DNA of 61,430 nt, the filler included. It is 10 parts of 10 records of this genome, joined end to end, with 100 filler letters (N's around TTAATTAATTAA, not from the genome) between each part and the next. Parts side by side here need not be neighbours in the genome. Positions count along the whole stretch, not along the records: positions 5,507 to 9,906 come from SRR7504441_2615; 9 more parts are not named here. One strand, given 5' to 3'. The notes under the pieces are model-generated. The model saw only the letters and a program-made list of their open reading frames with translations, ran no database searches and was not told the DNA's origin. This document shows positions 5,407 to 50,991 of the stretch, one piece after another. Position 1 is the first letter of the stretch. Every line of letters begins with the position of its first letter. Both the position numbers and the translations under genes were made by a program.

Positions 5407-5506
5407 NNNNNNNNNNNNNNNNNNNNNNNNNNNNNNNNNNNNNNNNNNNNTTAATTAATTAANNNNNNNNNNNNNNNNNNNNNNNNNNNNNNNNNNNNNN
5501 NNNNNN
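5407..5506. other. Artificial contig spacer (N-run, TTAATTAATTAA, N-run). The same spacer occurs at 9907-10006, 13603-13702, 16895-16994, 28685-28784, 36192-36291, 42895-42994, 46429-46528 and 50892-50991
   Basis: Identical 100-bp block with a six-frame stop linker; genes are cut at these points. Confidence 0.99.
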
Positions 5507-5688
5507 GAAGCAGACATCCCAGCAACACGACAAAGACGTCACTGGCAAAGCAAAGACGTCTTGTTGTCTAATGCATGTGTACTAAGTCTTCATTGTGACA
5601 GTCGACGTCTCTAATATAACAGTTATGTAGCTGGCGGAGCTCTATAACTACACTTGATAATCCTAATTTAATGCCAATCGTTTTGAGT

Positions 5689-8600
5689 TCAATGTCCTAA
5701 TTGATGGAAGTCGTCGTAAACTCTAGTGAACTCTTTGCATGCGTCTTCTGCATGCGGCAAGCTGCATCGATCCGGGTGGATCATTTTCATGACCTTTCGG
5801 TACATTTTCACAATTCTTTTCGCATGTAACTCGTCATCGGACATGTTTTGGCTCGTAATATCGAGCCCAAACATGTCCATCAGACGACGGAGTGCCTGCG
5901 CTTTGGACAGATGGGAACATACATATACTTCCCGATGGCTCTCAGCAATCCTCAATATTTGTGCAATCGCGTCGGCTGGTTCCATGTCCAGAATGCATTT
6001 GCGAGGGGGAGATGGTGGGTGCTGGGCCGTTCTGTGGGGGCCTGGCGGATGCTCTGCTGGTGGAGAAGGTTGGCGAGGTGGAGCTTCGTCCTCACTGTCA
6101 CTCGCTGACGCCTCATCAGTGTTCCAGCCGTCCCAGTCAGTTGCATCAGGACTATCGGACTGTTCAGGCTCTGCACTAGCCCACATGCCATTGTCCACAG
6201 CAGAAGCACGGTATTCATGCAACCGGCGGTGATATTCTTCGAGATTGTCACCAAGTCGTCTTATCAGTTCTGCATCTGCAGTAAGGGAGGTGCCGCATAC
6301 CATTCGCCTTTGACAAGCCTGATAGATACGAACATCCACAGATTGGTCTGCCTCAGGCAGTGCAGCGTGGCCCATGAATCGGACCGCTCGGCCCACACGC
6401 TGAAGAAAATCACTCGCACTGGTTGGGACGTCAACAAGCAGAAGGCGCCGCACTCCTTTGAAGGACACTCCCTCGGAACACTCTTGAGAATTTGCAACCA
6501 TTACTCTGATACTAGAATCCGGCTGATTGAATGTGCATAGAGCACACTGACAAGACCCACCAGCCCTTGAACGATCACAGCGCTTGCCTAGAAGTGGTAT
6601 GATCTTCTCGTTGCTCTCTTGTGAAAAAGGGTATCCCCTCACGACAGCGTCACCAAGCTCAGAGGCGAACATCTGCAGCAACAGTTTGTACCCATGATTT
6701 CGATGCACCATCACAAGCGTCTTCACCACAGGGGCTGCTAGTACATCTTTCACAACCACCTGCAACTTCGAGCAGAAGCCATGTGCGCGTCGGCTCTGTG
6801 CTGCCGAGCCAGCAGTCTCGTCTCCCAAGGCCAGCTTCAAGAGTGTACCTGAATGCCCAAGCACCTTATCTGCAACATCTCTCCGACCAGCATAGGTGGC
6901 AGACTGCGCGAGGGAGCATAATCTGCTGAGGCTTGCAAGGTCATCGAGCTCTAAGCTTGCGAGTCTCACGATCGAACCATGCCGTAAAAGCTTTTTCTCG
7001 TATTCCGTCCGATTTCCTATGCACCGTTTTACCTTCCTGGATTTGAAGGCGTGACCAAGTGTTGCATCGGAGAAGTTGCGAATGTTGAAACCCCGTATCA
7101 TTGATTCTGGTATCGACTGTGGTACACCAACTGGACTCACCTTGGGGAAGACCTTTGGCGGGGTGTCCATATAAAAAGATATGAAGCCTTCGTCGTTTAG
7201 CACTTCTTGACCCTGTCCTTTGATGATCGCTTTGAGGCGCTCGCCGTCTGCAAGATGGTCACACAAAGGTGTGCCTGTGAGCCCGATAATGACAGAATTC
7301 TTTGCTGTGTGTAAGAGGTGTCTAACTCGCTTGATCATCTCAAGGCGTCTCTTGCTTTTCAAAATCTCACGACTTGGACGGATCAGATTGTGAACTTCAT
7401 CCAGAAGGATGATTTTGTTCGAGAAGGGGTTGAAGTAGTTGTTGAAGTCACTGTAACCACCTTTTGATGGCAACTCTTCGGGATAGGAACCCGCATATCC
7501 ATCAGGACACTTGAAAATGGCATTGATTCTATCGCCACATGATTGATTTCCACCTGCCTGTGTATATGAGAATGCGCGAAGTGGAGCTGAGGGCAGATCA
7601 GGATCAACAAGATAGTCTTGGTGCACTCGACCTTGGTGAAGGATCCCTTGTAGCTCGAGACCTTTCTGTGGACTTCCTTCAAAGCACATGCGCTTGAGAT
7701 AGCTGGCATACCGGTTAGGAGCGCAGAATTGCCCTTGATTGGTCGTCTCGCTCAATTCACGATAAAAGTTGTCGCAAACAGCTCGGTTGGGGAATAACAG
7801 GAGTTTGGGCCGCCGATCCAAGAAGAAGTTGTCTGCGATCTGAATCATCGTTCTAGTCTTACCAGCGCCAGTACGGTGAATTGCAAGCATCCGTGGATTC
7901 GGGTACGTTCCGGGCCGGCACAGAAAGCTGACGACTTCCTGCATTCCAACACATTATAATAATGACACAGACACAACCATTATGGGTCACCTGGTATGGT
8001 TGCAGCTTTGGCTTTTCTGCGCTTGTAACCCAACAGACCGGCCTGAGATGCGTCGGCAGTAATACTTCAGGGTTACTGGGGACTCCTGCCTCACGCATGC
8101 GTGCCTGCGCAAACGCGTTGAAGCCCACATGCCCTGGCGGCACGTAGCCGTCAACGCTCTCCCAGCTCGGGCGGTACGGCAGTATCGCTCGTGCATTGCC
8201 ATCAAACTCCGTTCCCTCTGGGGCAGATCCCTCCGGGGCACTCGCTTCTGTAAAATTGGCGCCTGAGGCTTCCGCCGCCCCACTAGACTCTGCTTCTTCG
8301 TCGTCACTGCTACTGCTGTAATCTTGAATTGTCCATTGTATATCATCTGCAGCTGGGTTGGCCGCACCAGCTGCGAATTCATCCTCGCGCGCCACAAGCT
8401 CAGCCTCACGCACGGCATTTTGGATTCTTTCAACGACAGACTCCTCATCGTCATCCGCAGCAACCGACTCTGAAACGGTGTCAGTGCCAGCATTAACGGT
8501 GTCAGGGCAGCTGGTGTTCCCACAGCTGATGCTAGGGGCGTTACCATCCGACTGGCGCTTATTACGCCAGATTTGCTTCTGGCCACATAGAAACTCCTGT

Positions 8601-9268
8601 GTGATCCGGGGGATGGTGACAACGGGGGCAGTGCGCCTAGGCGGGCAAGGATTAAGATTGATGCAGATCCCAGACATTGCTTCATAGATGTGGACTTGAT
8701 AACGGATGAGTTTGTTGATTGGGTGGTTGAGAGCCCAGCCATGGGTCTTATCGAGGCACTCTGGACCTGACTGATAAGGGAGCCAGACGGCAGCCTCGCT
8801 TCTCAGTGATTCAAGATCATCGGCAAGCTCGATGCGTCTGTCTTTGTAAAAGGCTGCGCCTGGTTTGTTTTTGTTTACAATGCCCTCGCCGTTGACCAGC
8901 TTCTCTACGACCCTCATCACCTTGTTCACGTTGCTTTCAGTGAGACCCTCCGTATGCGCGAGGTACTCACGCATCTCCTCTCCATTGAATTCCACCCCTG
9001 TTAATCGAGCGCGCTGCTGAGCATCGAGTGAGCCTGTTCTTCGTCGAGGACGGCTGGCCTCTTTGATGGGCAGTGCTACCTCGGGATGCTCCGAGACATC
9101 ATTGCCCACCACGCCGGCCGGCGATATTTTGCGTGCTTCGCCAGCCGGTATTTCACACGTGGTATCATTGGCACTCTGTTGACCGGCCTGATCATCATCA
9201 GCCCGGGGAGGTGGTCCTGTATGCGCCCCTCCTCCCAGAGCACTGGACTGCTCGCGATCTCGCTTCAT
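5689..9268 (-). CDS. SF2 helicase of poxvirus D6/D11 (NCLDV) type with an N-terminal unknown domain and a C-terminal J-domain; 1 intron (7939-7990)
   Basis: The 52-nt GT-AG intron restores LQPYQ|EVV. Motifs: HRTGAGKT (Walker A), LLDEVHNL (DExH), GLTGTP, SEGVSFKGVR, QRVGRAVRFMGHAALP...VDVRIY. C-terminus YRKVMKMIHPDRC...AEDACKEF is an HPD J-domain. Confidence 0.8.
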
Positions 9269-9599
9269 GGCGCTCAGCGCGGGGTACAAAGAGCAGCAAC
9301 CGACGCCAGAGCAGGGTGCGTGCGACGAGCGTGCAAATTTGAACCGGACACATCCGGTGCCGCCGGGTAGACGTGTCCAGCCGTTGAAAAAGAAATGAAC
9401 CAGTCGCGTTTTTTTTTCGTGTTCTGACTTCGTGATTATTCAGATTTCTGTTGGAGACTGATTTCATTCTACGAGTACAATCGTATACTTATGATGTGAT
9501 GATAATGTGATGAATCTGATGATCATCATGATTACGTGCACATGACGTCGACTTGTATACGAATATGACTAACCTATACTCATGATTGTAAATCATTTT

Positions 9600-9906
9600 C
9601 TCTCCACTTGTTGAATTGTATCGCCAGCAGGTCTTGTCATCATCCAGCCTGAGTCGCCTCAACTGTGGCTCCTTGTCCCTCCATTTCACAGCAGTTCTGA
9701 GTCCACCCTCCAGCCCCAGCACCCAATTCATATTCAGCTCAACCACCATCGGCCTGTGATCTGAATCATTGACCCTGTGCCCCATGTATACCCCAGCCGC
9801 TCTGATTATCCCCTGCCTGACCAGAACCCTCGTTGCCAAAACATGGTCAGGGCAAGTCTCATGTGCCCCATCCTCCTCCGACCTCTTCCAAGTTTTTGCC
9901 TCCCTG
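9600..9906 (-). mobile_element. Relic of a non-LTR (LINE-like) retrotransposon: C-terminal part of the APE endonuclease
   Basis: Reads KTWKR...TCPDHVLA...GVYMG...NDSDHRPMVVEL (TW, xDHV and SDHxP motifs). Sense strand is strongly purine-rich. Homology stops near 9600 with no RT downstream. A host EEP-family gene cannot be fully excluded. Confidence 0.65.
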
Positions 9907-10006
9907 NNNNNNNNNNNNNNNNNNNNNNNNNNNNNNNNNNNNNNNNNNNNTTAATTAATTAANNNNNNNNNNNNNNNNNNNNNNNNNNNNNNNNNNNNNN
10001 NNNNNN

Positions 10007-13460: not shown

Positions 13461-13905
13461 TCCGGATCCGAGTGCCACCCGATTTTATAACGGCAATCAT
13501 CTGAGATGAAGCCAGCATCCTAGCCAGCATGCCTGACCTTTTGGCGCAGTTGGACGACCACGTGCTCACCCGGTGCGTCCACCGGCTTCCAGTGCACCCC
13601 GGNNNNNNNNNNNNNNNNNNNNNNNNNNNNNNNNNNNNNNNNNNNNTTAATTAATTAANNNNNNNNNNNNNNNNNNNNNNNNNNNNNNNNNNNNNNNNNN
13701 NNGTTCAACAGACTGAGCTGCCTGGACCAGCTGGCCCGGCTGACTGGGCTGCGGTGGGCCATAAGTCGGCCGGGCGTCGGGAGACTGGGGGCAGGCGGCT
13801 GAATGTGTCCACAACGTGGTCGAGTCGCTGGTGCTACACGTACGCTGGTGCAGCCGTTTTACAAGCCTTGCGTTTGAAATACGACTTTTCGAGCACGCTT
13901 CTTCG

Positions 13906-16894: not shown

Positions 16895-16994
16895 NNNNNN
16901 NNNNNNNNNNNNNNNNNNNNNNNNNNNNNNNNNNNNNNTTAATTAATTAANNNNNNNNNNNNNNNNNNNNNNNNNNNNNNNNNNNNNNNNNNNN

Positions 16995-28684: not shown

Positions 28685-28784
28685 NNNNNNNNNNNNNNNN
28701 NNNNNNNNNNNNNNNNNNNNNNNNNNNNTTAATTAATTAANNNNNNNNNNNNNNNNNNNNNNNNNNNNNNNNNNNNNNNNNNNN

Positions 28785-36191: not shown

Positions 36192-36291
36192 NNNNNNNNN
36201 NNNNNNNNNNNNNNNNNNNNNNNNNNNNNNNNNNNTTAATTAATTAANNNNNNNNNNNNNNNNNNNNNNNNNNNNNNNNNNNNNNNNNNNN

Positions 36292-39200
36292 GATGAGAAT
36301 CAGGAGCTGGAGGGGAAGATCCAAGGGCTGCAGAGCGAGCTCAAGGCGCTGCAGGAGCAGATGGATGCAGACGCCGAGCAGGGCAAGGCTAGGAGTGCCC
36401 AGGAGATGAAGACGCTGGAGGCCAAGCTGGCGGAGAAGACGAAGCAACTCAAGCAAGCAACGCAAAAGCTTGAGGAGAACGACAAGGCCCTGAAGGAAGT
36501 GACAGGGATGTGCGATATGATGCAGCGGCAGATCCAGGAGCTGCGGGACGAGCTGCTGGCTGAGAAGAAGGAACACATGGCCACGCAGGACGAACTCAAG
36601 AGGGCGGGGCTCAACCTGGAGCAGAGAGACCTGCAAGCAGGCAACGACCACGAGACACTGAGTGGCAAGAACACTGTGCTGGCGCAGCAGCTGGCAGACG
36701 CCAACGAGGAGCTCAGGACGCTGGCAGCAAAGCTGGAGCATCAGACAGGACAGACCAAGGAGGCCAAGGCTGAGCTTAGCCAGGCCCAGCAGGAGCTGAG
36801 TAAAGCGCTCCAGCAGAACAAGGAGGCGCAGGAGGCTCTGGACGAGCTGAACAACCGCAAGTTCCAGTGGTCAGAGTGGAATGATCAGCTCACCGCCAAG
36901 GTGTCCCAACTGGAGAAAGAACTGGGCGCAGAGAAGGCCAAGGTGGCGGCGCTCGAGAGCAGCCTTGAAACTGCCAATGCGGCCTTATCGAGCAACGAGG
37001 CCGAGGCTGAGGCGCGCAGAAAGGCCCAGGCGCTGCTGCAAGAGCTCGAAGAGAAGGTTGTAGCCGCCACCCAGGCAGCCGATGCTGCCCAGGCCCAGGT
37101 GGAGGGCTTGCAGCGAGAGCTCGAGCTGAGCCAGCTGAGGGCGACCAGTGCTGAACAGGAGTTGAAGCAGTGTCAGCAGGATCTGGAAGCAGCCCAGGCG
37201 GACCTGCACAAGACCAAGCAGGAGCAGCTTAAGCGAGAGAAGGCAAGGACTATCCAGGAGCGATTTGACAGCGCTCTCAAGTCCAAGAGGAGGCAGGACC
37301 TGGAGCAATTGCAGAATGATATCTCGGCTCTGCATGATGAGAAGGCTCAGCAGCTGGAGAGGATGCAGCAGATGCTCAAGCAGGAGAAGGAGACTGTGAT
37401 CCACCTGAGCTCGATGCGCAAATGGGACTTGATGCAGGCCAAAAGCAAGGCCGAGTCCGTCCAAGAAGACCTCAGGAATCGGCTCAGAGCTGCCGAGGAG
37501 CTGGCAGCCTCGCGCAATGCAATGCTGGAGCAGCTGCAGAAGGAGTCGAGTCTGAGTTCGGAAGAGCGCAAGCTGGAGTTTGAGTCGCAGATTGCATTGC
37601 TCGAGCAGAAGCTTAAGGCGCTGGAGGAGAAGAACCGCCAACTGACAGAGACAAACTCCAACCTGGACGAGACTGTGGCCAAGCAGCAGAGTCTCCTTGA
37701 GGAGGCCCAGAGCTTTGGCAAGGAGAATGAGTCGGAGGTGCAACGTCTTCAAGGCGAACTGGAGGCATCGCAGTCAGCAGAGCAGCAACTGCGCACAAAG
37801 CTCAGGGACCTCAACAACGAATTGTCGCGACTGGGTGCCACAAGCGAGCAAATGAAGCACCAATTGAGTGCTAAGGCCAGCGAGCTGGAGAAACTGCAGA
37901 CTAGGCTGGTTGCAGCCGAGGATGAATCGACTCAGCTGAAGGAGAAGCTTGATCACCTGCGCCAAACCCACGAAGAGGATATTACCAACTTAAAAGAGAA
38001 GGTCGAGCGGAGGAACAAGAAGCTGGATGAGGCCAAGCAGCAACTTGCTGCGCTGCAAGCCGAGCTTGAGGCCAGCCGTAGGGCGGTTTCAGAGCTGCAG
38101 GCTGAGATCGTAAACAATGAGGAGTCATATGATGTTGAAGGGCGCCGAGCATCTGCTAACCTTGAGGCTGCAAACAAGCGGGCAGAGGAGCTTTGGGCTC
38201 AGCTGGCAACTATGCACCAGCTGGAGGAGCAGCTAGCCACCAAAACTCGGCAGTTGGAAGAGGCTGGCGATGAGATAGATTCACTAAAGAGAGCCAATGC
38301 GCATTTGAGCGAGAAGATGGATCAGTTGCAAACCCAAGTGCATACTCTCGAGGCGGAGAAGAGGAATCTGCACATGTGCGGTAGTACAAAAGATGAGCTG
38401 ATCCGATCTCTACAAAATGAGCTTGAAGAGATGCGAACCGAAGAGGTGAGGCTAAGATCCGCACTCTTAGAAGCTGAAGGCAACCTAGCCAGGGAGCAGC
38501 AGGACAAGCAAAATGGCACAAAGGAATCTGCACAGCTGCGTGCGCAGTTGGCATCGCTGACAGAGCGATACAACAGCCTCCAGGCACAGTATGATGAAGC
38601 ACTGACGGAGGTCCAGAATTATGTGGCTTTGCTAGAAGGCGCCAACTCTCAGTTGGCAGAAGCTATGAAGTCTAGCGATGCAGAGGCAGCGCGTACAGCA
38701 GAGCTCGAAAGATCACTGGCAAAGGCCATGAATGAAATGAGCACTCTTCAGGAGCAACATCTGAGTACGAGCCAGGACCTTGCAAAGGCCAAAGAAGCGC
38801 TTGCTTCCTCGGAGCAGCAGATCGAGACTTTGAAGAACAAGATCAAATCAATCGTTTCTGAGATGAGCCGCCTCTCACAGGAGAATCTAGCGAACAATGA
38901 GCAACTAAGCCAGAAACTCCAAGCGGCCCAAAAAGATATAAATAACCTCCGGAAAGAGCTTAGTGAGCGCGATACTGAGGTGGATCAACTGAAGCACATG
39001 CTAGATGCATCTGAATTAACTAAGCAGCACAACGAGAGGCTACAAAAGGCGCTTGACGATACAGAGAAGCAGCTGCTTGAGCAACTAGACGAAGCCCTGA
39101 AATCGGAGCAAGAATGGGAAGCGCAACGGTCAGCATTCGAAGAAGAGATCAAACAACTGGAGGCCAAGCTTTTTGAGCAAGGGTTGAGCCATTCTGCGTC

Positions 39201-42200
39201 ATATGAAGCGATGGAGCAAGAACTGCGAGAGAAATACGAGAAGCTGAAGAAGGAACGCAAAGAGCTCGAACTGAGCATGGCAGAAGAAAGGCAAAATTTG
39301 ACTCAGGTGATCAACAATGCTCGCAGCCAAACAGCTGAGCTGAAACTGAAGATTGCTGCACTCGAAGAGGAGTTACAACAGGCTCGAGAGCAGGAGAGCT
39401 TGTGTGCTCAGCGCACTCTTGAGCTTGACCAAGCCATAGCCTTGCAGCGACAACTACAGGCCCAGCTTGACGCGGGGTCGGATAGAAGTAAGCAACTAGA
39501 GGAGAACCTGAAATCTACACAGGAGCAGCGGGATTCTGCGAGATCAGATCTGGAGACAGCGCGGCTGGACATAATTGCTGCCCAAAATGAGACCAGTGAT
39601 GCTGTGCAGACCCTGTCAAAGGTGAAGGAAGAGCTGGCAGCCCTGCGTGTGAAGCATCGATTCACTCTACTCAACATTGAAAGTCTCAGGGATAAGCAGC
39701 AGAGAGAGCAGGCAAGGTCTCAGGGCCAGGTGGATCAGCTCGAGTCGACCATACAATCCCTGCGTGAGCAGCTCGAGCAACAGAAGAAGCTGTTTACTGC
39801 TCAAAAGTGGCAGCACAATGTAGAGCACAGACAGCTCGTGGACATTCGGGCTCGCCTCAAGGCTGCACGGGAGACTGAGGTCGACCTCCAGTCGCAGATC
39901 CGCAATTTGCACGATGAGCTTGATAAAGCAAATGGGAATATAAGCGCACTGACCCTGGGAAAGGAGAGTTTGACACAGCGGTGCCAGCAGCTAATTGACG
40001 AATTGCATGCAATTGAGTTGAAGCACTCAGAGACACTGCTGCAGTTGCAAGAAGCAGAAGCAGCCGCCAAGAAGAGCAAGGTCGCTCTGATGATGACCCG
40101 CGGGGGTGCCCAAGGCCATTTGGAGACTGCGAGACAGCATGAGAAGCAGGTTGGGGTGCAAGCCACGTTGATTTCACAGCTGCAGGCCGAGCTGGCAGCT
40201 GCCAATCTTGCCAGTGGCGATGCAACTGAACAGCTGCAACAGCTTCAGCAGTTGTGTGACTCGCGAAGCAAGGCTTTGCTCGAGATGCAGGAGAAACTCC
40301 ACGACTCCAATGCTGCTCTCGAGGACGAGACAAAGCGGTCAGAGGAACTGAGAGCGGCTTTGACTGACGCCGAAGCTGAAGCTTTGGCTGCTAAGAAGAG
40401 GCTGCAGGAATCTGATGTAGAGATGAAGGCACTGCAGCGCTCGCTCGATGCTGAAAAGGCGCAGCTAGTCCTGATGAGGCAGGATGCTGAGAGGGCAGAA
40501 TTGCTACTTGCAAAGGCTGCTGAGACAGCTGCATCAGTAGAGGAAGGATTGCGGAATGAGTTGGCAAACAGCAAATCCCTCTACAACGCCCTCGAAGAGA
40601 GAATGGCGGATGTCCAGAAGCAGCTGGATGGTGAGAGATCTAAGAATCTGCTATTACAGGGAAGCTTAAGGAGCGTACAGGACATGGTTGGCGCAGCCCG
40701 TAAGAAAGAGAAGCAGCTGCTCGATGATTACTTGAGGATGCAAGATCAGACTGAACAGTCAGAAGGTGGGGCAGAAAAGTGGTCTCGGGAGGCGGCTACC
40801 AAAGAGCAGCACATTGCATCTCTCACAGCTCAATTGGAGATCGCAAACGCAAAGCTGGACGCCTTGAAAGTCGATCACGACGAGCTGGTAACTGCCTGCA
40901 GCTGCCTAATGGGTTGTCTGATGTGCTTTGCCTATTGACCGGTCCTCTTATCGCTGTGTGTTGTAGGATAAACGGCACGCAGCGACAGCGCAGCAGCTTC
41001 TGGATACCAAGCAACAGGCTGTGAAGAATGAGCAAGAGCGAGGGCAGATGCATACCCGATCCGTGGCTGCAGAGGGACAGCTGGCTTGTGCGAACACAAG
41101 GATCGAAGAGCTGGGGCAAGAAATCGATCGGCTGCAGAGCAAGATTTCTGGGCTGGAAGATATCAGCATGTCAGCAGTCGACGGGGAGCAAGGCCTGGAG
41201 AAGCAGAGCTTGTCCCAGAGACTCAAGGCTCAAGCTGCCGAGGCTGAATTGAGACATCTCAAGCAGGCGATGGCAGCCAAAACATCGGAACTAGAAAAGA
41301 TTAGGGGAGTGCTTGTGGATGTGCAAGCTCAGTTCTCAAGTTTGGATCTGATCCGCCAAACAGCAGAGGCACGGGTCCAGGAGCTCGAAGTGATTGTATC
41401 AAAGCTGGAGGACGAGGTATCGACGCTCCAGATTGAGCGAAGTGAAACCACCAGCGCTAACCTCGCGCTTGGGGCAGAGTTCAGGGCTCAGAAGCTTAAG
41501 TTGGAGCAGCAGCTTGCAGAGGCTGAACAGAAGATCAAGATGCAGAACGCAACAATAGAGTGGATGCGCGAGTCTTTGCAGTGTGCAGAGGAGGAGGTAG
41601 CGGCAGCGAATCGCCAGGGACAGGATGAGTTGGCCAGTCTTCGTTTGCAGCTGGCCGAGCTGGAAAGCCTAAACCAGCAGCAAAGGCAGCAGCTGCAACA
41701 AAAGCAAAAGGAGCTAGTTGAGGCGGAGTGCGCACTCGATGATTTGAAGTCCAAGATGCGGAGACAGCTTGAGCTTGAGCGGGACGAGAGGGAGATGCTG
41801 CAGCGCCTGTTGGATGCAGAGTACACGGGCAAGCTGGCAGTTAGCCATGCGCAGATGCTCAAAGATAGCGAGATTAGGAAACTCAAGGATGCAGAGGCAG
41901 TCCTTTTGCAGAAAGTGCACGACCTTCAAACAGAGTTGGACAAGCTATTGATGCTGAGTGAAGCTCAGCATACTAGAGCAATGAAGCAGCTCGAGGACCT
42001 TGCCGAGCAGCTCAGGCAAGAAAGGAGCAGCCCTGCCAAGTCACGCAGTCCTGATACGTCGCACAGCCCTCAAGCCTTTGTTGACCAGAGTGAAATGGTA
42101 GAGCAGCTGATGACATTGAAGCTGGAGTTGGAGAGGCAGCTGAAGCAGGTCGAGGCTGAGCATGCTGGTGTGGTGGCCCAGAAGGACAAGCAGCTGGCGG

Positions 42201-42841: not shown

Positions 42842-43528
42842 CCGTCCTTACGATAGATAAGGTTTAAAACACTAGTGGAAAAGTACTTAGGCAGNNNNNN
42901 NNNNNNNNNNNNNNNNNNNNNNNNNNNNNNNNNNNNNNTTAATTAATTAANNNNNNNNNNNNNNNNNNNNNNNNNNNNNNNNNNNNNNNNNNNNGCCGGC
43001 GCTGATCAGCAGCGGCCCGGCGGTCTTCAAGGAGGAGCATGCAGGAGGTGCAAGAAGCAAGGGAGGCGCCCTGAACTCTTGCCTGTTTCGATTTTTAAGG
43101 AAGTGAGGTCATTGGTCTAAGGGGACATCACTATCACGTACCGATGGTAGGGCTCTACGTTTACTCAGCCCCAGTGGGTGCTGAGATTGTACATTAGCAA
43201 TGCTGCATTAATCATGCAAGCAGAGAGAAGTCCAAACAATAGTCGATACTTAAACAATTAATTGATTGTACTAGTTAAGTACCTACATGTAGGTAGTGAG
43301 TGCTCAAAAGTTTGAATGCGTGCTTTGAAATTAGGACCAAAAGAACCCTTAGGTCAATCTCTAATGCGTGATTTTCCCTGAAGTCGTTGTCGCCACTTGG
43401 ATTTCCATGTGGGGTGAACATTCTTGATAGATGTCCACGTGGTGTGGTGTATTTATGTAGTATATATGGTGTGTACTTGCTGCTATGTGTGATCTTACAG
43501 CGCCGATGATCACTCCGTGCCTATGCGC

Positions 43529-46428: not shown

Positions 46429-46528
46429 NNNNNNNNNNNNNNNNNNNNNNNNNNNNNNNNNNNNNNNNNNNNTTAATTAATTAANNNNNNNNNNNNNNNN
46501 NNNNNNNNNNNNNNNNNNNNNNNNNNNN

Positions 46529-50891: not shown

Positions 50892-50991
50892 NNNNNNNNN
50901 NNNNNNNNNNNNNNNNNNNNNNNNNNNNNNNNNNNTTAATTAATTAANNNNNNNNNNNNNNNNNNNNNNNNNNNNNNNNNNNNNNNNNNNN

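Follow-up and report, generated by a model that had tools for sequence, protein, structure and literature searches.

The window analysed here is a 61,430-nucleotide stretch made up of ten joined contigs, and one of these (positions 5,507 to 9,906, from SRR7504441_2615) carries a split gene on its minus strand for a superfamily 2 (SF2) ATPase with a C-terminal J-like domain. The gene is probably a two-exon nuclear gene of a haptophyte-like eukaryote, whose product would be an Hsp70-recruiting DNA translocase of the vaccinia NPH-I type and likely a chromatin factor. Judged from its sequence relationships, a viral origin of the gene is plausible. An earlier sequence-only reading had described the same locus as a giant-virus D6/D11 helicase turned into a spliced host gene and fused to a J-domain. 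The layout of the gene, in window coordinates, is as follows.

5507 to 9906, no strand: piece holding the gene, 4,400 bp, GC content 0.517, with TTAATTAATTAA linkers on both sides
7991 to 9268, minus strand: exon 1, 426 amino acids (P0002), beginning at the first ATG of its open reading frame (9268)
7939 to 7990, minus strand: intron, 52 nucleotides, GT..AG, frame-shifting
5689 to 7938, minus strand: exon 2, 749 amino acids plus stop (P0001), with the stop codon at 5689-5691
7991 to 8167, minus strand: pre-Q module and Q motif, SWESVDGYVPPGHVGFNAF...GVPSN...KLQPYQ, aligning with P0003, P0005 and P0013
6184 to 7938, minus strand: SF2 ATPase core (Snf2-like, NPH-I-type) with two RecA-like lobes, exon-2 residues 1 to ~585
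7855 to 7878, minus strand: motif I (Walker A), HRTGAGKT, aligning with HETGVGKT of NPH-I
7390 to 7401, minus strand: motif II, DEVH, with D180 and E181 invariant and H183 nearly invariant in family alignment A1
6379 to 6402, minus strand: motif VI, QRVGRAVR, and after it the FMGHAALPEADQSVDVRIY extension, which can be aligned with NPH-I
5989 to 6183, minus strand: acidic, proline-rich low-complexity linker, exon-2 residues 586-650
5692 to 5988, minus strand: divergent J-like domain at the C terminus, exon-2 residues 651-749, the protein stopping after helix III
5770 to 5778, minus strand: HPD tripeptide between predicted helices II and III

The gene model derives from two open reading frames (ORFs) on the minus strand, of 526 codons (7859 to 9439) and 754 codons (5689 to 7953), which lie in different frames and, once spliced, give a protein of 1,175 amino acids. 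The intron borders read ...CCATACCAG/GTGACC...AATGCAG/GAAGTC, and the predicted spliced junction joins ...CCATACCAG to GAAGTCGTC. In relatives the sequence LQPYQETVA.LCRP runs uninterrupted across the intron site. Indeed, when five relatives (P0003, P0005, P0013, P0188 and P0190) were searched by tblastn against the piece holding the gene, each gave two collinear high-scoring segment pairs (5 of 5) that abut at the 52-nucleotide interval with no residue missing. As 52 is not a multiple of three and the relatives read through the site, the interval has to be removed to keep the frame, and on this comparative evidence its splicing is required. A spliceosomal-type intron at the Q motif, as proposed in the sequence-only reading, is thus the predicted arrangement, with GT..AG ends, a frame shift and uninterrupted relatives all in its favor. 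The 52-nucleotide sequence was not found as a repeated element in the window, where it occurs as a single copy.

Upstream of the intron, residues ~270-426 of exon 1 form a region conserved with relatives. No relatives were detected for residues 1 to ~270, which look lineage-specific, and neither Pfam nor the ESM Atlas gave a usable match for exon 1. A block of ~170 residues (exon 1 residues ~100-270, window 8350-8970) is missing from the N-termini of P0003, P0005 and P0013. The pre-Q module is shared with P0190 at 46% identity over 59 amino acids (E 3e-11), and it also appears in the consensus of alignments A1 (18 sequences of the family) and A3 (the short clade). Between the ATPase core and the C-terminal tail, the linker is predicted to be disordered, with pLDDT <50 over exon-2 residues 588-650 of the AlphaFold model.

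All of the motifs quoted in the sequence-only reading were found in the protein: LQPYQ, HRTGAGKT, LLDEVHNL, SEGVSFKGVRR, QRVGRAVRFMGHAALPEADQSVDVRIY and IHPDR. Motif III reads GLTGTP. None of motifs Q, I, II, III and VI is disrupted, and their key residues are invariant or nearly so in A1. The stretch beyond motif VI to which that reading had drawn attention (GRAVRFMGHAALPEADQSVDVRIY) aligns with NPH-I. Two Pfam families scored over their cut-offs, ResIII (E 1e-9) and Helicase_C (E 6.2e-5). SWI2_SNF2 failed (E 0.017, 15.3 bits against a cut-off of 26.7), DEAD fell under its cut-off (E 0.02), there was no SNF2-rel_dom row at E ≤ 1, and Pfam reported no poxvirus-specific C-terminal region for the protein. 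When the single sequence was searched against the sequences of solved structures, vaccinia NPH-I (D11) was the best match (E 3e-4). The A1 profile widened this separation: NPH-I was matched at 2.5e-23 and the small subunit of VETF (D6) at 5.5e-6, and the remaining 21 of 23 rows at E ≤ 1 were all at 0.095 or worse. Among the solved chains, which are what this comparison covered, the protein is therefore set apart from the ordinary cellular SF2 families; grouping with one of them would have spoken against the D6/D11 assignment.

The predicted fold is less selective. The AlphaFold model of the helicase (pLDDT 71.5) was matched best by Foldseek to three NPH-I chains (1.6e-11 to 3.4e-11), with Mot1, CHD4 and SNF2h within one log. 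VIA-align placed INO80, ISW1 and SNF2h at the top (Z 21.3 to 19.4, root-mean-square deviation [rmsd] 3.7 to 4.2 Å, ~390 residues); NPH-I ranked 23rd with Z 18.0, yet no other chain aligned over more residues (415 to 423) or with higher identity (17 to 18%). These groups are told apart by the sequence profile and not by the fold, which is Snf2-like. In BFVD, a library of viral structures, the 27 best rows included 21 with names, each of them a helicase of Nucleocytoviricota and several labeled D6-like or early transcription factor 70 kDa. A link to prokaryotic defence helicases was considered and dropped, the only PADLOC match being DpdE at E 0.0065 (12.8 bits).

The family to which the protein belongs is common to giant viruses and to the genomes and transcriptomes of haptophytes and dinoflagellates. 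A word-indexed search returned 31 relatives at E ≤ 0.001, the top one at 53% identity; among those with names, the Prymnesium parvum relative (49%) lies on a contig of 4.77 Mb, the other named sources being Polarella glacialis and a EukProt transcript, and the closest named relatives of the window protein are from the haptophyte Prymnesium. A profile scan of 1.84 billion representatives gave 10,768 proteins at E ≤ 1e-3, 6,020 at ≤ 1e-10 and 597 at ≤ 1e-30, the last figure being a count of clusters at 50% identity. Three of 20 cluster representatives are named (Polarella glacialis, an IMG "superfamily II helicase" and a metagenome-assembled genome [MAG] of "Pseudomonas sp."), and one Polarella cluster contains MMETSP and EukProt transcripts. 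The third of these names belongs to P0037, a family member of 621 amino acids filed as "MAG: hypothetical protein [Pseudomonas sp.]"; its contig, of ~15 kb, is probably of viral or eukaryotic origin and placed in the wrong bin.

In PMC4083422, a D6/D11-like SNF2 helicase is listed among the most conserved core genes of the nucleocytoplasmic large DNA viruses (NCLDV), as a type I core gene, and PMC8575486 gives SFII as the giant-virus marker GVOGm0013. Members of the present family do lie on giant-virus contigs, which bears out the viral D6/D11 link drawn in the sequence-only reading. No locus on viral contigs was confirmed when the query was the window protein, A1 or P0036, and the scan with A3 confirmed two of 70 pattern stretches. 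One locus (L001) lies in a giant-virus bin of 315 kb, where the helicase is the sole family member detected. At a second (L002), an NCLDV major capsid gene (1.5e-39) lies 3.6 kb away from the helicase, with Pox_A22 also close by. In BLASTP, the window protein matched these two giant-virus helicases at 4e-31 (L001) and 2e-16 (L002). Two further metagenome contigs, L035 and L037, look viral from their sequence and also hold family members, of weaker similarity; L035 carries Rpb2 as a single ORF, a PIF1 helicase and two family helicases. On L037, a contig of 63 kb, positions 461-2824 encode a ribonucleotide reductase large subunit with an intein splicing domain (5.4e-6).

The C-terminal tail was matched to J-domains by both profile and model. 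A profile of four orthologous tails (A2) found 57 PDB sequences at E ≤ 1, of which the best 17 were all DnaJ, auxilin or RabJ proteins (top 7.9e-6). The HPD tripeptide is invariant in all six aligned tails, the others being 26 to 34% identical to that of the window. In the tail model (pLDDT 80.7), HPD (72-74) sits between helices at 53-71 and 81-99. VIA-align returned eight chains with Z ≥ 5 for this model, every one a J-domain: xRbj/DNAJC27 was the top match (Z 7.6, rmsd 2.2 Å, 71 residues, 30% identity), and the J-domain of polyomavirus T antigen (1faf) was among the others (Z 5.3). J-domains also made up nine of the first 12 Foldseek rows. With Pfam DnaJ (PF00226), the window tail reached E 0.0018 and 18.8 bits against a cut-off of 27.8, and P0018 and P0193 reached 19.3 bits (E 0.0013) and 24.9 bits (E 2.3e-5). 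The C-terminal J-domain claimed in the sequence-only reading thus keeps its HPD and its J-like profile and model matches, and loses the expectation that the region would pass the DnaJ hidden Markov model (HMM), which it does not at the curated threshold. A search with the tail region (residues 645-749) in a set of 5.8 billion proteins gave 57 candidates, none at E ≤ 0.01. Taken together, the tail is probably a real J-domain that is divergent and shortened.

The pairing of helicase and J tail is a conserved arrangement. It occurs in seven distinct sequences: the window protein, P0004, P0014, P0018, P0193, one gene present on L003, L004, L005 and L011, and L006. An HMM of the tail matched the gene on L003/L004/L005/L011 and L006 with E 1.7e-19 and 9.1e-27, respectively. 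A C-terminal HPD in a J-like context was present in just four of 187 proteins screened. In a 16-sequence subtree (supports 0.16 to 0.78), the J-bearing members form a basal grade, within which the J-less P0003, P0005, P0006 and P0007 are nested, and the J tail appears to be ancestral in the window's subclade.

Full-length orthologues carry additional modules of the kind found in chromatin proteins. L006 is a single ORF of 1,907 amino acids with zf-CW (6.3e-13), ResIII (7.2e-12) and a J tail, and P0193 combines two FHA stretches (2.6e-11) with zf-CW (2e-12), ResIII and DnaJ; Agenet-like and ZZ-like modules occur besides FHA and zf-CW. On L005, a metagenome contig of 53 kb with a GC content of ~0.66, the ORF for the first lobe also includes FHA (8.9e-14), zf-CW (7.4e-11) and a weak Agenet match (0.0031), and the helicase has genes for U-box, amino-acid permease, GT47 glycosyltransferase and filamin-repeat proteins as neighbors within 10 kb. 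These reader domains and the cellular neighbors of this one orthologue fit a host gene concerned with nucleoprotein remodeling, and to that extent the corresponding suggestion of the sequence-only reading is supported. Exon 1 of the window gene has only the 59-residue pre-Q module in common with L006 (46% identity, 3e-11), and the intron site of the gene on L003/L004/L005/L011 differs from that of the window. A paralogue on L025, L026 and L027 is broken into at least seven ORF pieces.

Other members of the family show different attachments. In P0191 the tail is replaced by SAP and WW domains, and fn3 is added in P0010 and P0194. The SAP and WW domains lie C-terminal of the core in both P0191 and P0192, and P0016 has an N-terminal SidE-type phosphodiesterase domain (2.9e-6); together these point to very free domain shuffling around the helicase motor. 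A sister subclade (P0008, P0011, P0012 and P0015) bears a different conserved C-terminal domain in place of the J tail (A1 columns ~1700-2080), with the pattern ..W/FRGG.., ..[AS]TSF.., ..E[KR]EFLL.PY... This pattern is, we presume, reminiscent of R-S-E ADP-ribosyltransferases; Pfam found no ADP-ribosyltransferase family in that domain at E ≤ 0.01. At L005 10343-10420, the orthologue's intron opens with an exact 30-nucleotide copy of downstream exon sequence (GTGCGCGACGAGTTCCTGCGCCACCCGGAC). From its sequence, this looks like an intron that arose by a tandem duplication, which supplied the AG/GT sites, or like the target-site duplication of an inserted element.

Several observations weigh against a eukaryotic motor of viral type coupled to Hsp70. 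The gene is alone on its 4.4-kb piece, so that the window copy has no genomic context, and splicing of this copy is predicted by comparison with relatives. The reader domains of the orthologues were not found by Pfam in the window copy on the available DNA. Cellular Snf2 remodelers fit the helicase fold as well as or better than NPH-I. The J tail is under the Pfam gathering score in each member tested (18.8 to 24.9 versus 27.8 bits), and P0004 and P0014 have no DnaJ row at E ≤ 0.1 in Pfam; Foldseek gave no match to the tail model at E ≤ 0.001 (best 0.1), the Z scores of 5 to 7.6 (<8) are middling for a helical domain, and the tail ends directly past helix III, with no helix IV.

One concern is the ancestry of the motor. 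It could be an old cellular Snf2-like helicase of haptophytes or alveolates that giant viruses captured, its likeness to D11 and D6 then reflecting capture or deep shared ancestry. The fold searches are in keeping with such a history, as is the size of the eukaryotic clades with their FHA, zf-CW, SAP, WW and fn3 accessory domains. A FastTree phylogeny was computed from 158 sequences and 514 columns (148 core-spanning proteins and 10 locus ORFs, after removal from 185 proteins of 28 that did not span the core and nine near-identical cluster members). P0004, L006, P0003, P0005 and L009 form a group with the window protein (support 0.999), whose sister is a five-tip clade (1.0); a 49-tip clade of long proteins, the Polarella sequences among them, comes next. 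One of the two L035 helicases (L035b) falls in a 19-tip clade that is sister (0.938) to the window, five-tip and 49-tip clades together, and L001, L002, L035a and L037 are among the short forms. This unrooted tree was built without poxvirus or cellular Snf2 sequences, and its deep supports of 0.19 to 0.51 leave room for capture from a cell. Against capture stand the profile, which sets NPH-I and D6 apart from all cellular SF2 chains in the PDB; the presence of viral loci at two separate positions in the tree, one of them within the clade that is sister to the clade with the eukaryotic long forms; and the named eukaryotic members, which come from two algal lineages only. PMC3493329 likewise reports that NCLDV monophyly has strong support in trees of the D6/D11 family. 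Capture of a cellular helicase is, on balance, an unlikely history, though one to be taken seriously. With no root and weak deep supports, the tree suggests a virus-to-host direction of transfer and does not demonstrate it. Of the "domesticated viral helicase" of the sequence-only reading, the presence of family members in giant viruses stands, and the polarity rests on an unrooted FastTree topology.

Another concern is the tail, which might be a helical interaction module that resembles a J-domain, does not work as one and leaves Hsp70 uninvolved. The scores under the Pfam cut-off in all tested members, the missing helix IV and the best Foldseek E of 0.1 are what such a module would give. It would leave to be explained why HPD is invariant in six of six tails that otherwise share only 26 to 34% identity with that of the window, why the best 17 PDB profile rows are all J-domain proteins and why the eight chains at Z ≥ 5 are J-domains without exception. 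In addition, the basic helix II (KRIVKMYRKVMKMIHPD) and the A..A.K pattern of helix III fit the alignment with DNAJC27/RabJ. We regard a non-working look-alike as doubtful. That the 4.4-kb piece is instead part of a giant-virus genome, or of an endogenous giant-virus insertion in decay, with no working host gene, is very improbable: the gene is alone on a piece with the lowest GC content of the ten (0.517 versus 0.531 to 0.637) and its family is present in giant viruses, but it has a frame-shifting GT..AG intron within conserved sequence and an intact frame of 1,175 amino acids with all ATPase motifs kept, its nearest relatives reside in eukaryotes (L005 amid cellular genes over 53 kb and Prymnesium parvum on its 4.77-Mb contig), the GC content at third codon positions (GC3) of its exons (0.50 and 0.55) overlaps the 0.54 to 0.79 seen for ORFs of the remaining pieces, and the window holds neither a capsid gene nor a second family member.

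The eukaryotic NPH-I-type translocase favored here can be set beside several known systems. NPH-I (D11) and the VETF small subunit (D6) are poxvirus transcription ATPases that have been solved in complexes with RNA polymerase, and among solved structures they rank first and second by sequence match (6rfl_Y and 7amv_W). The Q motif, Walker A, DExH, TATP-like motif III, motif VI and the extension after motif VI all align. Overall identity is, however, only ~15 to 18%, and the window gene is eukaryote-encoded and bears an intron; its product also adds the pre-Q module, linker and J-domain, to which the orthologues add FHA and zf-CW. The likeness does not imply that the protein takes part in viral transcription. 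The core helicases of giant viruses labeled SFII, DEAD-SNF2-like or D6/D11-like are a second such system, with family members on L001, L002, L035 and L037 and the top BFVD matches, but the window and "long" clades are eukaryote-encoded, longer and equipped with cellular domains. Cellular Snf2 remodelers (INO80, ISWI/SNF2h, CHD1, SRCAP and Mot1) share the two-lobe fold (Z 21.3 to 19 over ~390 residues), and their architecture is echoed by the chromatin-reader accessory domains of the orthologues; in contrast, they gave no significant sequence match to the window protein among the Pfam models and solved chains.

Among J-domain proteins, the closest in type is DNAJC27/Rbj (RabJ), in which HPD likewise lies between two long helices and IHPD[KR]C..P.AEDA.K aligns with LHPDKC.APGSEDAFK. 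There the J-domain sits on a GTPase or chaperone body, whereas in the window protein it is at the C terminus of a helicase, scores below the Pfam cut-off and ends past helix III. Polyomavirus large T antigen is likewise a DNA motor with its own recruiter of Hsp70. Its helicase is hexameric and of superfamily 3 (SF3), with an N-terminal J-domain, in contrast to the Snf2-like SF2 helicase and C-terminal J-domain of the window protein, and the two fusions are independent. A full-text literature search, judged by titles and the starts of abstracts, found no D11/NPH-I-type algal helicase fused to J, FHA or zf-CW, which is not proof of absence. Both kinds of protein were already known; what appears new is the combination of a Snf2-like, NPH-I-type helicase with a J-domain.

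A possible mode of action follows from these comparisons. NPH-I, D6 and the Snf2 enzymes are driven by ATP to translocate on duplex DNA; by analogy, the motor would bind double-stranded DNA and track along it using ATP. As zf-CW is a methyl-lysine histone reader and FHA a reader of phosphothreonine, these domains in the orthologues may direct the motor to marked chromatin, for example at sites of damage or transcription. The tethered J-domain, analogous to other J-domains, would then trigger ATP hydrolysis by Hsp70 beside the protein-DNA complex that the motor has engaged, and Hsp70 would clamp, dismantle or reset that complex. An antiviral role, also raised in the sequence-only reading, is possible; the PADLOC match to DpdE described above does not support it.

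The window contains 18 runs of 44 N, which correspond to nine N44-TTAATTAATTAA-N44 linkers with stops in six frames, and these join the ten contigs (3.2 to 11.7 kb). The linkers and the other features noted are as follows.

5407-5506, 9907-10006, 13603-13702, 16895-16994, 28685-28784, 36192-36291, 42895-42994, 46429-46528 and 50892-50991, no strand: linkers
9492 to 9905, minus strand: ORF upstream of the gene (the "LINE relic"), 138 amino acids, running off the piece

As the ten pieces are separate, the epimerase, leucine-rich repeat (LRR), DUF7605 and P-type ATPase genes elsewhere in the window are not neighbors of the helicase gene, and statements on gene neighborhood across linkers are void. 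The remark that no other viral genes are visible on the contig says little for the same reason, the contig being the 4,400-bp piece and not the window; no capsid gene or second family member was found anywhere in the window, whose other pieces are not linked to that of the gene. The upstream ORF had been taken for the relic of a long interspersed nuclear element (LINE); it has no Pfam match at E ≤ 0.01 and a best PDB match of E 0.58, and that assignment, unsupported by Pfam or PDB, was dropped. On another piece, an open frame of 1,564 codons (36244-40938, plus strand) has a strong AT skew (0.30 to 0.36) and a GC content at second codon positions of just 0.33; neither this frame nor the next ORF, of 558 codons, matched any Pfam family at E ≤ 0.001.

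Helicases of the D6/D11 type are treated as a hallmark of giant viruses, and the present analysis shows that a large eukaryote-encoded branch exists, with introns, cellular neighbors, reader domains and a conserved J fusion. A D6/D11 marker alone is therefore unsafe for calling a sequence viral in algal data, and the family is a concrete case in which to study how genes move between giant viruses and haptophytes or dinoflagellates. It also presents a testable design, an SF2 DNA motor hard-wired to Hsp70; to our knowledge, the pairing of a motor with an Hsp70 recruiter is otherwise known from polyomavirus T antigen, with an unrelated helicase. A more speculative scenario, which we consider improbable as a whole, is that haptophyte-type algae co-opted a giant-virus ATPase of the NPH-I/D11 kind and added histone and phospho-readers N-terminally and a J-domain C-terminally, producing a "motor plus chaperone" for chromatin. 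In its bold form, this machine may still recognize the transcription or replication complexes of giant viruses, which Hsp70 would dismantle, and would be a virus-derived antiviral factor. In its milder form, it may represent a new class of eukaryotic remodelers of viral descent, comparable to the virus-derived nucleoproteins of dinoflagellates.

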